A DNA stretch of 64,000 bases, taken from assembly GCA_945877815.1 (NCBI GenBank), contig CAMDWJ010000009.1, positions 8,130-72,129 of the forward strand. Direction: 5' to 3'. The position numbers and the translations under genes are program-made. The DNA is from Caenispirillum bisanense. GTDB lineage: Bacteria > Pseudomonadota > Alphaproteobacteria > Rhodospirillales > UBA2165. Shown one piece after another: positions 53,379 through 59,686 of the stretch (position 1 is its first letter; each line of letters opens with the position of its first letter). Below the pieces are notes generated by a model that worked only from the letters and a program-made list of their open reading frames with translations, ran no database searches and was not told the DNA's origin.

Positions 53379-56231
<2,853 letters not shown>

Positions 56232-56248
56232 AATAAGGAAGATCTAGC

Positions 56249-56707
56249 TTAAAGATCATTTTTTCTAAAAATTTCGTCCATCACTGTATAGAATGTTGCT
56301 TCTCGCGGTTGACCTGCATTTGCCAGCATCGCATGCACGTCGATATGCTTGCTCCGATCATTGAGTTTGATGCGCTTATTCGTCACTACTTCGATGAAGA
56401 CGGGTTCCCCACCTTTCACTCGCCAGCCCGAATCTAAATTCTCGATCTCACGAATTAGAAAGGGCGAGACATTTTCTCCCGTGGAAGTGAAATGGTCGGG
56501 TTTCAACAAAATCGATTTTTGTTCGTGATTGAAATTTAAATAGAGATTCCATGGTTCGGCAGGTATTCCGCCGTTGGCGAAGTAACCCATAACGTAGCCA
56601 ACCAAGCGTAAAGCCGAATTTTCGTGCATGGCGTAAATCAATTGATTTTCGCCTAGAACGAAGTAGAGGCTCCACCTAAATCCGAACCATTTATTCCAAA
56701 ATGCCAT
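56249..56707 (-). CDS. hypothetical protein (AT-rich, follows higA)
   Basis: 152-aa ORF with AGGGG SD, 24 nt after higA stop; no recognised motif. Confidence 0.65.
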   Translation of the reverse strand: MAFWNKWFGFRWSLYFVLGENQLIYAMHENSALRLVGYVMGYFANGGIPAEPWNLYLNFNHEQKSILLKPDHFTSTGENVSPFLIREIENLDSGWRVKGGEPVFIEVVTNKRIKLNDRSKHIDVHAMLANAGQPREATFYTVMDEIFRKNDL

Positions 56708-56731
56708 CGTAGCCCCTGAGTGGTTGTCGCC

Positions 56732-57043
56732 TTAGAGCGGGCTTTCCACCGGCTTCGCCCGCTCGATGCGCTTGCGCCGCTCCGGCGTGTTCAGAGCTTC
56801 CCATAAATCCGTGCGACGTTGCACGTTCAGCCAGAAGTCGGGCGTATTGCCGAAGACGCGCGCGAGCATGAGCGCAGTATCGACCGTCACCGCGCGCCGT
56901 TCGTTACAGATTTCGTTGACCAGTCGTCGTTCCACGCCCATCGCCTCGGCCAAGGCCGTTTGGGTCAGGCCGAGGGGCTTCATGAATTCCTCGTCGAGCA
57001 TTTCGCCGACGGAGACGGGGCGGCGTTTAGTCATCGTTGTCAT
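56732..57043 (-). CDS. higA: HigA family antitoxin (XRE HTH)
   Basis: PVSVGEMLDEEFMKPLGLTQ..LA..VNEICNERR..TALMLA..FWLNVQ. Confidence 0.92.
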   Translation of the reverse strand: MTTMTKRRPVSVGEMLDEEFMKPLGLTQTALAEAMGVERRLVNEICNERRAVTVDTALMLARVFGNTPDFWLNVQRRTDLWEALNTPERRKRIERAKPVESPL

Positions 57044-57066
57044 GGCTTCACCTAACTTGAGATCGA

Positions 57067-57363
57067 TCAACGATAGTTATGGTTATCGAGATAGACGTTC
57101 GACGCTTCGCCGAGAGTTCCATTCCACTGAAAGATCAAACGCCAACTGTTGGTAACGCGAATTGAATGCCAATCTTGCAGCGTGCCCTTGAGCTTCTCGA
57201 AGTGATTGGACGGCGGCGACCGCAAGTCGAGATCGTTGGTCGCGTCGTCCATCAATTGCAGCTTGCGAAACAACCGATCCCGAGCGTTTGCCGGTATATG
57301 CTTCGAGATTCGGTCGTCGCAGAAAAATTGTTCGAGCCAGTCGTCTCGGAAACTGACGATCAT
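57067..57363 (-). CDS. higB: HigB family toxin (RelE/ParE, plasmid-killer type)
   Basis: MIVSFRD, DLRSPPSNHFEKLKG, HSIRV..WRLIF, YLDNHNY; toxin-first order. Confidence 0.92.
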   Translation of the reverse strand: MIVSFRDDWLEQFFCDDRISKHIPANARDRLFRKLQLMDDATNDLDLRSPPSNHFEKLKGTLQDWHSIRVTNSWRLIFQWNGTLGEASNVYLDNHNYR

Positions 57364-57379
57364 CGTGTCTCTCTTTACT

Positions 57380-57399
57380 ATTATACCGTACATACGTAC
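57380..57399 (-). promoter_or_regulatory. higBA -10 element and candidate operator
   Basis: minus strand TATAAT at 57380-57385; GTAC-N4-GTAC palindrome at 57388-57399. Confidence 0.45.
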
Positions 57400-57416
57400 A
57401 AATTAAACTTTATAAT

Positions 57417-57431
57417 GTTCCTATTTTGTTC
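57417..57431. promoter_or_regulatory. alphaproteobacterial LexA (SOS) box
   Basis: GTTC-CTATTTT-GTTC = perfect GTTC-N7-GTTC; abuts TTGACC at 57432. Confidence 0.85.
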
Positions 57432-57612
57432 TTGACCAACGTAACTCATGTGGGCTATTCTTCAAAAAGAAATCTGCAGGGTCTCGTACTCACGTTCGGC
57501 GGCGCAGCGAGCGAGCCCGCCGCGCGCGACCCGATTGCTCTTGAACATGGTGAATGGATCGTACCGTCTCCGGTTTATCCGGGCATGTGTGCCCGGCGGT
57601 ACCTTGGGATCG

Positions 57613-57755
57613 GGTCGAATTGGTGTCGATCCCCTGTCGATCCCCTGTCGATCGCCGGTAGATACCCAGTCGATCCGATGTCGATGAAATGTCGATCCGA
57701 TGTAGACGTGATGTCGATGGTCTGTCGTCCCAATGTCGGTCGAATGTAAACGCAT
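57613..57755. repeat. array of 13 phased 11-bp units, core TGTCGAT + 4 variable nt
   Basis: units start at 57613, 57624, 57635, 57646, 57657, 57668, 57679, 57690, 57701, 57712, 57723, 57734, 57745 with no indels. Confidence 0.9.
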
Positions 57756-57959
57756 CGGGGGGACGAAAGCCCAGAATTCCTTCAAATTTTAGGTAAATCA
57801 GAACTAAATTCTTACATCAAATTTGTGCGAGTCTGAATTTTGCCTCTCGCCCTGCGTGTCGAACCGGGTTACGAACATCACCTATAAATAAGGCGAATGT
57901 CATAAATTGTTCGCCGTGCTGAGGGTGACCGCGCCGGATGTTCAACAAGGCGGGTCAAC

Positions 57960-58226
57960 ATGATGTTTTTTCGACGCACCTGGGAAACCCCCACGTGGCA
58001 TTGGCGCACCCAATGTTCGTCGTGGCCCAGCGAAGAAGAGGCCGAAGAGCGCGCCGGATTGCCGCGCGGCGGCCGTTTGTGCAAGGAATGCGAAGCGCTC
58101 GATCTGAGATCGGCGCTGTTGCGCCTGGAGGCCGAGGAGGCCGCTGCCGCTCGGCAACCCACCGCCGCCGAGGTGCCGCCACCAGCGCAGGCGCGCCGCA
58201 AATCCGCCAAGCTTAAAACCGCGTGA
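57960..58226 (+). CDS. small His/Cys protein, possible zinc-binding
   Basis: WHWRTQCSSWP...LCKEC; AAGGCGG SD-like; Ala/Lys-rich tail. Confidence 0.6.
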   Translation: MMFFRRTWETPTWHWRTQCSSWPSEEEAEERAGLPRGGRLCKECEALDLRSALLRLEAEEAAAARQPTAAEVPPPAQARRKSAKLKTA

Positions 58227-58245
58227 CGCTTGGGCTCTTGAATAG

Positions 58246-58860
58246 CTAGGGAATTTGTCCGTGCCGGGCGCGCGCCTTGCCGAGCTTGTACCAGGTCAGC
58301 AGCGCGAAGGCGGGCGCGCCGATCGTGGCACCCACGATGACCGGCATGTGCCAGCCCAGCCACACCAGCGGCCCGAAAAGATACAGCACATCGTCAAAGT
58401 CGAAACCGGCAAAGCCGGGATAGGCCTTCTCGCCGGTATCTTTCTGCAATTGGTCGATTTTCTCGGCCAGGATCTCGGCCGCCACCACGCCGGCGCCCCC
58501 TAAGAGACCGCACAGGATGGCCCAGTCGCCGAGCCAGCCGTGGCGCAGGCCCGCGCCGGCGCCAACGAAAAACAATGCGGTGACCGTCACGTCGGCGACG
58601 TAATCGAGCTTGTGGCCCCACGCACTCGTCTTGCCGCTGACGCGCGCCAGTTCGCCGTCGGCGCGATCGAGGAAGGCCGAGAACAGCCAGAGCCAGCCGC
58701 CCCACAGATCGAACTCCCATTGGCCCACGGCGAAGCACGAACAGGCGGCGATTCCGCTGAGCAGGCGGACCACCGTCAGATGGTTGGGGGTGATCGGGCT
58801 ATCGACCAGCGGCAGGATGCAGACCCGCGCGATTTTGTGAGTCCAGGAATCGCCTACCAC
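58246..58860 (-). CDS. CDP-alcohol phosphotransferase family protein
   Basis: ITPNHLT, DRADGELAR-x7-GHKLDYVAD signature; 7 nt after hpnK stop. Confidence 0.9.
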   Translation of the reverse strand: MVGDSWTHKIARVCILPLVDSPITPNHLTVVRLLSGIAACSCFAVGQWEFDLWGGWLWLFSAFLDRADGELARVSGKTSAWGHKLDYVADVTVTALFFVGAGAGLRHGWLGDWAILCGLLGGAGVVAAEILAEKIDQLQKDTGEKAYPGFAGFDFDDVLYLFGPLVWLGWHMPVIVGATIGAPAFALLTWYKLGKARARHGQIP

Positions 58861-58867
58861 GCCCCGC

Positions 58868-59686
58868 CTACCATATCAGACTCCGAAAATTGGAAAGTTG
58901 GATGCCGCCGGTCGCGACCGCGCGGCGCACCTCGGGATCGAGCAGGGCGGCAAGTTCATCGGCAAAGCCGTAATGCGCTGCCTTGGGATCGACCTCGCCC
59001 CAGGCCTCGGTGGCCGGGTGGCACATGATCTCGGACACGCCGTCGCTCAGCCGGGCGAGGAGGCCGAGCATGCGGGTGCGGTCGAGCCGGCCGGTATCGT
59101 TGAGGCCGTAAAAGGCATCGTTGCACTGCACACCTTTGCTGCGCAGCCGGCGCTTGGCCCAATCGGCCCACAGCCGGAACAGCGTGTTGGCGAGGCCGGG
59201 CGCATGCTCATAGGGAATGCGGATCGCGCGCATGCCATGCTCGCGCCCGATCCTGAGGATCAGCCCGAAGACCGTCGGATGCACGTGCATATGGTTGTGG
59301 GCGTTGACGTGATCGAGCGCGAGACCGGTGCGCGCGAAGGCATCGAACTGGGCGCGGATCTCGGCGGCCAGTTGTTTGCGCACACGAGGCAGGAAGAAAT
59401 AGCGAAAGCCGGCGCGCACCAGATTGTCGTCGAAGTTACCGTCGGCATCCACGAGATCGGGTATCTGGGCAGGCGGCAGGATGGCGCGGCCGCGCGCGAC
59501 GACCACGTGAAGGCCGACGCCGAGGCCGGGCAGGGCCTTGGCACGTTGGATGGCATCGGCGGCTTCGGGGGCGGCGACCATCAGGCAGGTGGCGGTGAGA
59601 ATCCCGTCGCGATGCGCGGCCTCGATCGCTTCGTTGACGGGCCGCGACAGGCCGAAATCGTCACCGGTAACGACGAGGCGCTTCAG
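58868..59686 (-). CDS. hpnK: hopanoid-associated deacetylase HpnK (YdjC family)
   Basis: KRLVVTGDDFGL, GVGLH, DHVNAHNHMHVHP, EIMCHP; start is CTG at 59686 or GTG at 59707. Confidence 0.88.
   Translation of the reverse strand: MKRLVVTGDDFGLSRPVNEAIEAAHRDGILTATCLMVAAPEAADAIQRAKALPGLGVGLHVVVARGRAILPPAQIPDLVDADGNFDDNLVRAGFRYFFLPRVRKQLAAEIRAQFDAFARTGLALDHVNAHNHMHVHPTVFGLILRIGREHGMRAIRIPYEHAPGLANTLFRLWADWAKRRLRSKGVQCNDAFYGLNDTGRLDRTRMLGLLARLSDGVSEIMCHPATEAWGEVDPKAAHYGFADELAALLDPEVRRAVATGGIQLSNFRSLIW

Follow-up and report, generated by a model that had tools for sequence, protein, structure and literature searches.

The DNA analyzed here is a stretch of 64,000 nucleotides, referred to as the window, in which a tandem array of 11-bp units is located in a 567-bp intergenic gap. 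The features of the locus are listed below with their coordinates and strand.

56231: end of uvrA, flanking the block 56232-57773
56232..57773, no strand assigned: block absent from the sister species, comprising orf152, higA, higB, box, promoter, leader and array
56249-56707, minus: orf152, 152 aa, no Pfam match
56732-57070, minus: higA, HTH_3 antitoxin gene (Pfam)
57067-57393, minus: higB, HigB-like toxin gene (PF05015, E 3.6e-29), divergent from the array element
57417..57431, plus: candidate LexA-type SOS box GTTCCTATTTTGTTC, a GTTC-N7-GTTC direct repeat with AT-rich spacer
57432..57461, plus: promoter-like site TTGACC-18-TATTCT (promoter scan, 1 site vs 0.7 expected)
57468..57612, plus: putative leader (from sequence and fold), with hairpin CCGGGCATGTGTGCCCGG at 57579-57596
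57613..57755, plus: array of subfamily A (ATG-TCG-AT-NNN), 13 x 11 nt (unit reading, TRF, PWM and family profile)
57756..57792, plus: 3' tail GCATCGGGGGGACG...GAATTCCTTCAAATTTT (family-profile match)
57960-58226, plus: ORF of 88 aa with a CKEC motif, no Pfam match, conserved in the sister species

The block 56232-57773 has a GC content of 51%, compared to 60% for the genome, and orf152 one of 44%. In the sister species (G001), which is the only other genome of the genus, the stop codon of uvrA is followed by 12 bp and then by the homolog of 57774-58138; the tail sequence from 57774 on is present there and the array is absent. Nucleotide identity over 57774-58138, which covers the 5' two-thirds of the 88-aa ORF and its upstream region, amounts to 71%, and 57960-58226 probably encodes a real small protein. 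The candidate SOS box lies 24 nt upstream of the divergent higB start and abuts the -35 hexamer of the promoter-like site (TTGACC, 57432-57437), whose promoter match is modest (9/12) and from which transcription would start near 57468. An alternative -10 hexamer, TATAAT, is found at 57411-57416 directly before the box, an arrangement shared with the copies of subfamily C described below.

Reading the array unit by unit confirmed the earlier note's description of 57613-57755 as 13 gapless 11-bp units without indels, in which G and T at unit positions 2 and 3 are invariant (13/13 each). The remaining core positions are T1 in 10/13, C4 in 10/13, G5 in 12/13, A6 in 11/13 and T7 in 9/13 units. The last four nucleotides had been regarded as a free spacer, which holds only in part: positions 8-11 are mixed, with C or G at position 8 in 11/13 units, but the base preceding TGT belongs to the conserved part, because paralogs and sister species reveal a deeper register of the form ATG-NNN-AGA-NN. 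TRF reported period 11 at 57624-57703 and additionally a period-22 row, corresponding to a weaker alternation, at 57669-57718. The heptamer TGTCGAT occurs 23 times in the window, compared to 11.2 +/- 3.1 times in shuffled sequences, none of which (0/100) reached 23; six plus-strand occurrences, at 57624, 57635, 57646, 57679, 57690 and 57712, are spaced by multiples of 11.

The array had been taken for non-coding DNA, and the ORFs overlapping it on either strand are indeed without Pfam match. Rfam gave no match at E<=1 between 56000 and 59000 of the window, and ARAGORN found nothing at the array, only two distant tRNAs. A coding alternative would have each unit start a mini-ORF with its ATG, or a 33-nt super-period encode a repetitive peptide; ATG is in fact the best-kept part of the unit in both species, and there are overlapping 107-aa ORFs on either strand of the array. 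We nevertheless regard this alternative as hardly credible, since the period of 11 nt is not a multiple of three, the overlapping ORFs lack Pfam matches, the frame is not kept between copies that differ in unit number, and inspection of window and paralogs revealed no suitably spaced ribosome-binding motif.

The array is not a solitary structure. The regular expression proposed in the earlier note, a PWM of the unit and a lag-11 autocorrelation scan were applied to the genome of the window (G000, 3.98 Mb, 84 contigs), and all three found many arrays, at least 37 of this type in total. Genome-wide, regions with >=56% self-identity numbered 36 at lag 11, seven at lag 10 and none at lag 13; the same scan gave 31 regions at lag 9 and 55 at lag 12, counts which putatively arise from codon periodicity. 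The set of 37 is composed of 33 of the 36 lag-11 regions, selected by inspection, three short arrays from the PWM search and one found by eye, and two further loci detected with the generic pattern ATGNNNA stand outside this tabulated set. A profile built from 12 full copies matches 26 loci of the genome at E<=1e-3, the window copy included.

Each element comprises about 300-350 bp. An AT-rich promoter and a leader precede the 4-13 phased units, which are followed by a hairpin/T-run module and, beyond it, by another 1-3 units. The 12 full copies are 68-78% identical to the copy on contig C11, and no two of them are close to each other. All 12 carry, in the same orientation, an upstream AT-rich UP-like stretch and the promoter TTGACT-18-TAGACT, which the promoter scan also detected in both copies tested (L110, L116), followed by a leader of about 100 nt, an A-run and 9-13 units. 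The units have features tied to their position, e.g., TGTTTATTTCC for unit 2 and GGACTATCGAA for unit 4. Behind the array the full copies contain a partial unit in inverted orientation (GCATCGGGAC), then the GGAAATCCGGGATTTT module and one more degenerate unit; an inverted unit in this place is common to subfamilies A and C. For about half of the full copies the module is predicted to form an A-tract/stem/U-tract hairpin, and the scan called a terminator-like site (hairpin and T-run, plus strand) in L116 and none in L110. Across all copies the units share the form ATG-NNN-AGA-NN and fall into three subfamilies:

Subfamily A: units ATGTCGAT, 16 loci, including the window (ATG-TCG-AT)
Subfamily B: units ATGTCGAGA/ATGTAGAGA with interspersed GGTCTATGAAA, nine loci
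Subfamily C: units ATGCCTAGA/ATGCACACA/ATGCGAAGA, 12 loci

Subfamily C has the same 5' and 3' modules, with trailing units of its own type. Within this family the window array is a diverged member. Profile positions 152-326 match 57606-57792 (E 1.1e-27), i.e., array and tail only, and by blastn only the array part of the intergenic region matches elsewhere in the genome. The place of the window promoter corresponds to that of TTGACT-18-TAGACT in the paralogs; the window copy itself is without the family A promoter, its leader is not alignable to the family A leader, and the promoter/terminator scan found no terminator-like site there. The DNA platform proposed in the earlier note is not supported in this form: the array does not stand alone but is one diverged member of a dispersed family, found throughout downstream of a conserved promoter and in one orientation.

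Flanking genes were tabulated, as had been suggested, and read by eye. They are unrelated housekeeping genes, and no neighboring gene, par and response regulator genes included, recurs at the 26 profile-hit loci; six of the 12 full copies, and the diverged C10 copy as well, have a convergent downstream gene. Since the flanks are unrelated and often convergent, the element is neither the 5' UTR nor the operator of one operon. Upstream of four copies there are ORFs of about 125 aa, which are mutually unrelated and appear to be spurious, and Rfam gave no match in 18 paralogous loci. On C12 (2430-3005 of the extracted flanking sequence) the element directly follows a gene whose product contains an HPFREGNGR motif, presumably of the kind found in Fic/Doc proteins, and on C39 (2505-2981 of the extracted flanking sequence) it follows an ORF of 158 aa, which seems to resemble the small subunit of a phage terminase. 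At C6:71445-71573 the genome has another simple tandem repeat, CCGCTATGTGA x4, which does not belong to the family.

About a third of the elements are associated with LexA-type boxes. The window box GTTCCTATTTTGTTC is an exact match to GTTC-N7-GTTC, which is listed as the SOS box of Caulobacter in Table 1 of PMC9578287. The window genome contains 35 exact boxes with AT-rich spacers, which have the extended consensus ATGTTC in common, and boxes precede both lexA (C8:65148, with the gene at 65241, about 90 nt) and recA (C44:31482 vs 31651, about 170 nt); LexA_DNA_bind has a single match in the genome. By its proximity to a promoter and the occurrence of the same motif at lexA and recA, 57417-57431 appears to be an alphaproteobacterial LexA box. 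Twelve of the 37 elements, among them that of the window, carry a box with <=1 mismatch within 320 nt upstream of the array, where about 1.0 would be expected from the genome-wide box density, and an exact box is present within this distance in 6/37 elements compared to 0.1 expected on the same basis. In subfamily C the box directly follows the -10 hexamer, whereas in the window copy it abuts the -35. Like the arrays, the local LexA box repeats directly with a period of 11 bp, and its half-site begins with ATGT, as the array units do. About 25 strong boxes of the type ATGTTC-N5-ATGTTC form a putative SOS regulon, in which lexA and recA are tied to genes; further examples are located at C3:143359, C19:46698, C10:37620, C23:5748, C31:41972 and C40:18146.

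LexA probably represses transcription of the window copy and of about a third of the family, and DNA damage would relieve this repression. In Caulobacter, higBA is known to be under the control of LexA, and the window box may serve higBA, the array element or both; it could also serve the divergent higBA alone.

Parts of the region 55500-59500 are contained in four metatranscriptome runs. Two whole contigs from two studies, of 266 nt (X16, 57485-57750) and 267 nt (X17, 57483-57749), extend from about 15 nt past the predicted start to the end of the array, and a third contig (X15) spans 57712-57856; further RNA contigs have loose ends that correspond to other copies, e.g., the C7 copy. The contigs are unstranded, their ends may represent assembly breaks at shared words, and carry-over of DNA is possible, so that they are a hint of array expression and not a proof. 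Contigs are absent over 58314-59500 and 56438-56705 in the four runs, holes which prove nothing. One could attribute these contigs to the minus strand and regard the array as part of an extended leader, or of an operator, that belongs to the divergent higBA. The distance between the array and the higB start is 220 nt, this start and the LexA box are both spanned by an RNA contig (57196-57453), and orf152, higA, higB and array form a single indel relative to G001. Against this stands that the other tabulated loci, with flanks read by eye, have no HigB or HigA neighbor and that the architecture shared with the paralogs places the promoter on the plus strand; moreover, no RNA contig bridges 57454-57482, a gap which alone is no evidence. 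A higBA leader is thus a very improbable explanation of the array.

Of the 12 family A copies, 11 have a predicted leader hairpin at the same place, and an analogous structure is predicted for C57. One pair of the outer stem is GC in eight, AU in two and GU in two copies. The RNAalifold consensus of full transcripts is weak, because MAFFT does not align the leader structurally. The folding energy of the array (z -0.15) and of the whole putative RNA (z -0.31) equals that of shuffled sequences, and the folds do not repeat a hairpin from unit to unit. Of the 25 copies in subfamilies A and B, 20 are oriented with the G-rich (leading-like) strand; over all 37 copies the ratio relative to GC skew is 25:12, which is no stronger than the ordinary strand bias of genes and agrees with transcribed genes, without amounting to a strong polarity.

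The sister species permits a view on the constraint that acts on the units. G001 harbors at least eight arrays of the same architecture. A UP-like stretch and TTGAC come first, in some cases with a LexA box; the leader and the units follow, and behind them a GGATTTCCGGG...TTTT module with a pair of trailing units. The G001 units (ATGATGAGA, ATGCTAAGA, ATGCTTAGA, ATGCACAGA, ATGTCCAGA) differ from those of G000 in the middle triplet. Four of seven tested G001 loci are syntenic with an element in G000 although the flanking genes are only 78-85% identical, which implies that the arrays persist over long times. At the syntenic pair C57 and G001 C2, the arrays align without gap over 104 nt; unit positions 2-8 are identical in 58/68 cells, compared to 14/36 cells at positions 9-11 plus 1. 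The view that core and phase are constrained, rather than freshly produced by slippage, is thereby strengthened, and the behavior that the earlier note had expected of a neutral minisatellite, with equal divergence of core and spacer and frequent indels, is not observed at this pair.

The other ortholog pairs likewise keep the phase and show no indel. Between the species ATG, AGA (or a TGTCGAG core) and the phase are kept, whereas the spacers diverge. At the pairs C32/L214 and C22/L211, ATG and AGA are retained in 17-18/21 and 14-16/18 cells, respectively, compared to only 5/18 and 6/16 cells for the middle triplet. At C11:98757/L218 the units are ATGTCGAGA in G000 and ATGATGAGA in G001, and the trailing units beyond the 3' module change likewise, so that the middle triplets are species-specific even at three syntenic loci. 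Since phase and constant bases are kept at syntenic pairs while the variable triplet changes in concert within a genome, we consider the former to be under constraint, and the concerted change suggests either a shared trans-acting partner or frequent gene conversion.

Gene conversion is part of an alternative in which the family is a selfish or neutral repeat, a modular element like MITEs or BOX that is spread by duplication and whose units have no function for the host; slippage and conversion between copies would keep the minisatellite regular, and the promoter would be a side effect. Pneumococcal BOX elements with their variable number of boxB, REP/BIME and MITEs are modular repeats dispersed over intergenic regions. 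The present family shares with them dozens of modular intergenic copies with variable internal tandem sub-units, a lineage-specific expansion and differences in presence between close species. It deviates by a sub-unit of only 11 nt with conserved core and free spacer, by the conserved inward-reading promoter, by the LexA box in a third of the copies, and by terminal inverted repeats not being seen.

The distribution of the copies speaks for such a repeat in several respects. Insertions and absences distinguish the two species: the block of the window is absent from G001, both of the additional family A loci with a resolved comparison (2/2; a third had only one flank) lack a counterpart there, and at 3/7 G001 loci the corresponding G000 site is without element. 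Copy numbers are strongly unequal, with 89 matches of the generic ATGNNNA pattern in G000 vs 23 in G001, the copies are situated in intergenic gaps, often between convergent genes, and conversion could yield species-specific units at syntenic loci. At one syntenic site, G001 C1:153215-153331 contains an array element and a small gene, and G000 C1:137560-138150 an unrelated AT-rich insert of 600 bp. On the other hand, slippage or conversion should homogenize the spacers too, yet these differ and ATG, AGA and core are kept; four of the seven G001 loci are syntenic despite their diverged flanks; no close copies exist; and the enrichment of LexA boxes is hard to explain for junk DNA. Terminal inverted repeats and target duplications were not seen in 16 aligned copies with flanks or in two filled-vs-empty pairs, whose intergenic DNA has diverged too far for exact borders, and no transposase was seen at these aligned copies and site pairs. 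On balance we consider a purely selfish origin unlikely, although a serious alternative.

Within the genomes searched, the family is restricted to the genus. A five-unit TGTMGA pattern was found in two of 201 sampled genomes of the order, namely G000 and G001 of the same genus, and blastn with a full copy gave matches in two of 41 relatives. The generic ATGNNNA pattern produced single short matches in 3/37 other genomes of the family and, in a sample at class level, matches in 4/400 other genomes, all of them perfect simple repeats. Across genome contigs, a three-unit TGTCGAT pattern occurred at 109 or more loci in unrelated phyla; since the family profile matched nothing but the repeat itself, these are chance matches or simple repeats. 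A metagenome scan with the conserved promoter module gave at least 119 loci; among the matches listed one had lag-11 periodicity, and this one lies on an unrelated contig with 19% GC. The viral scan with a four-unit ATG-NNN-AGA pattern resulted in 12 loci, all perfect simple 11-bp repeats in AT-rich phages. The respective IMG/VR contigs (L232-L243) carry runs such as ATGGTTAGACA x6, ATGGTCAGAGC x6 and ATGTAAAGATA x5, which may be iterons of origins or partition sites. One of the three other genomes of the family with a short match belongs to a sister genus (G023, C16, L247); there a simple three-unit repeat ATGAGGAATTC occupies 1490-1545 just before a gene start, with a GTTC-N7-GTTC site about 110 nt upstream of it, and the similarity to the arrays may reflect a distant kinship or be coincidental. 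No description of such arrays was found in the accessible portions of the literature searched.

The element resembles sponge RNAs, parC-type iterons and BOX-like repeats and combines the full set of tested features of none of them. Multi-site sponge sRNAs are CsrB and RsmZ for CsrA and CrcZ for Hfq/Crc. Like these, the element would be a stand-alone, promoter-driven ncRNA with many copies of a short motif and possible paralogs, in which the motif matters more than the intervening sequence. Unlike these, it keeps a strict spacing of 11 nt, its motifs are not placed in hairpin loops, and it is present as about 37 genes, a far higher number; GGA, which CsrB and RsmZ expose in hairpin loops, is only sporadic in the spacers. 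CsrA (PF02599) has no match in the genome (completeness 100), with a control search matching in 3/14 genomes, and a Pfam search for PUF gave no match but is uninformative, its control likewise matching in no genome; no candidate binding protein was found in the genome. ToxI antitoxin RNAs of type III toxin-antitoxin systems consist of repeats of about 36 nt, arranged in tandem ahead of the gene for the toxin. With ToxI the element has in common a putative promoter-driven tandem-repeat RNA followed by a terminator and a fast divergence of repeat specificity. It differs by its 11-nt repeat and by unrelated, often convergent downstream genes, and no toxin gene directly follows the array at the tabulated loci.

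Closer in geometry are DNA sites. The parC centromere of plasmid R1 is composed of ten 11-bp iterons around a promoter and bound by ParR. The arrays described here share direct iterons with the same conserved period of about one helical turn, here 13 x 11 bp, two blocks split by a short core region and proximity to a promoter. They are distinguished by the lack of parM, parR or another recurrent neighbor at the tabulated loci (26 loci with flanking ORFs read by eye, Pfam on the window ORFs), by dozens of chromosomal copies, by their position downstream of the promoter with putative transcription, and by several unit subfamilies. Pho boxes of PhoB/OmpR-family regulators are head-to-tail direct repeats with an 11-bp period and a TGTCA core, and the 7+4 geometry is present in the window array. 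The alphaproteobacterial LexA box GTTC-N7-GTTC is a direct repeat with an 11-bp period as well (PMC9578287, Table 1). Both types of site resemble the arrays in having head-to-tail repeats one helical turn apart, but comprise two to six repeats at or upstream of a promoter, whereas the arrays have 4-13 units 50-200 nt downstream; between the predicted start and the array of the window lie about 145 nt, and this array is not at the -35. Moreover, the unit cores TCGAT, TAGAG and CCTAGA differ from GTTC of LexA and from the Pho core.

Following these analogs (ParR/parC, OmpR/PhoB-type regulators and the direct-repeat LexA box), the units might serve as iterons in duplex DNA, on one face of which a protein would bind cooperatively in head-to-tail order, and transcription through the array would be regulatory or incidental. 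The 11-bp period and the conserved core without indels across paralogs and orthologs agree with such a platform, as do the units that recur past the hairpin/T-run, the inverted unit behind the array in subfamilies A and C, and the organism's own LexA box with its 11-bp period and ATGT half-site. At C57/G001 C2, neither the promoter nor the 3' module can be aligned although the array is conserved, which is in keeping with a role of the array as DNA. It is difficult to reconcile with a platform, however, that the orientation downstream of a conserved promoter is fixed in all full copies, that RNA-library contigs cover the array, that no partner gene recurs at the 26 tabulated profile-hit loci, that several binders would be required for the three unit subfamilies of this genome, and that LexA_DNA_bind has only one match there. 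Overall, a pure DNA platform appears rather unlikely.

We therefore favor, with a probability of roughly 40%, a genus-restricted and duplicative family of small ncRNA genes, the phased units of which are multivalent sites for a trans-acting factor. This reading is based on promoter, leader, array and hairpin/T-run occurring in a constant order and orientation, on the independence of neighboring genes, the RNA cover, the LexA boxes at promoters and the long-term keeping of phase and constant bases. A sigma-70-type promoter of the element's own would transcribe the leader and 4-13 phased 11-nt units (ATG-NNN-AGA-NN) up to the hairpin/T-run module, giving a small RNA of roughly 270-300 nt. In this RNA the units would act as single-stranded sites, as a sponge or scaffold, for a sequence-specific factor whose specificity would have drifted together with the units, and LexA would hold the window copy and about one third of the family repressed until DNA damage. 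The trailing units may lie outside this RNA. These units past the hairpin/T-run, the promoter lost at one orthologous array and the failure to find a candidate binder in the genome keep the DNA platform and the selfish repeat alive as explanations. Other conceivable roles were considered and set aside, namely a mimic of Rho-binding rut sites, a binder ring like that of TRAP, mimicry of the tRNA T-arm, sequestration of tRNA by minigenes, decoys for restriction sites, and condensates of RNA with RNA by way of the palindromic cores. Going further, the family might constitute an undescribed class of ncRNA, i.e., dozens of paralogous and partly SOS-controlled sRNAs, each with about eleven 11-nt modules of constant ATG/AGA and a variable triplet co-evolving with the trans factor; this we regard as a possible but doubtful extension.

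Even as a selfish repeat, the family would still be a clean case of an element carrying a promoter and a LexA box which is able to rewire the expression of neighboring genes. As functional RNA or DNA platforms, the elements would form an unusually large family, with about 37 genes and several hundred binding units per genome. If the ncRNA class is real, it would represent a genome-wide multivalent platform whose dispersed copies change their triplets in concert between sister species, and its phasing in steps of a helical turn, concerted change of specificity and SOS link would match no catalogued family that we found. It would then point to a sequence-specific nucleic-acid-binding factor in freshwater alphaproteobacteria and offer a natural system for the co-evolution of a trans factor with dozens of dispersed targets.
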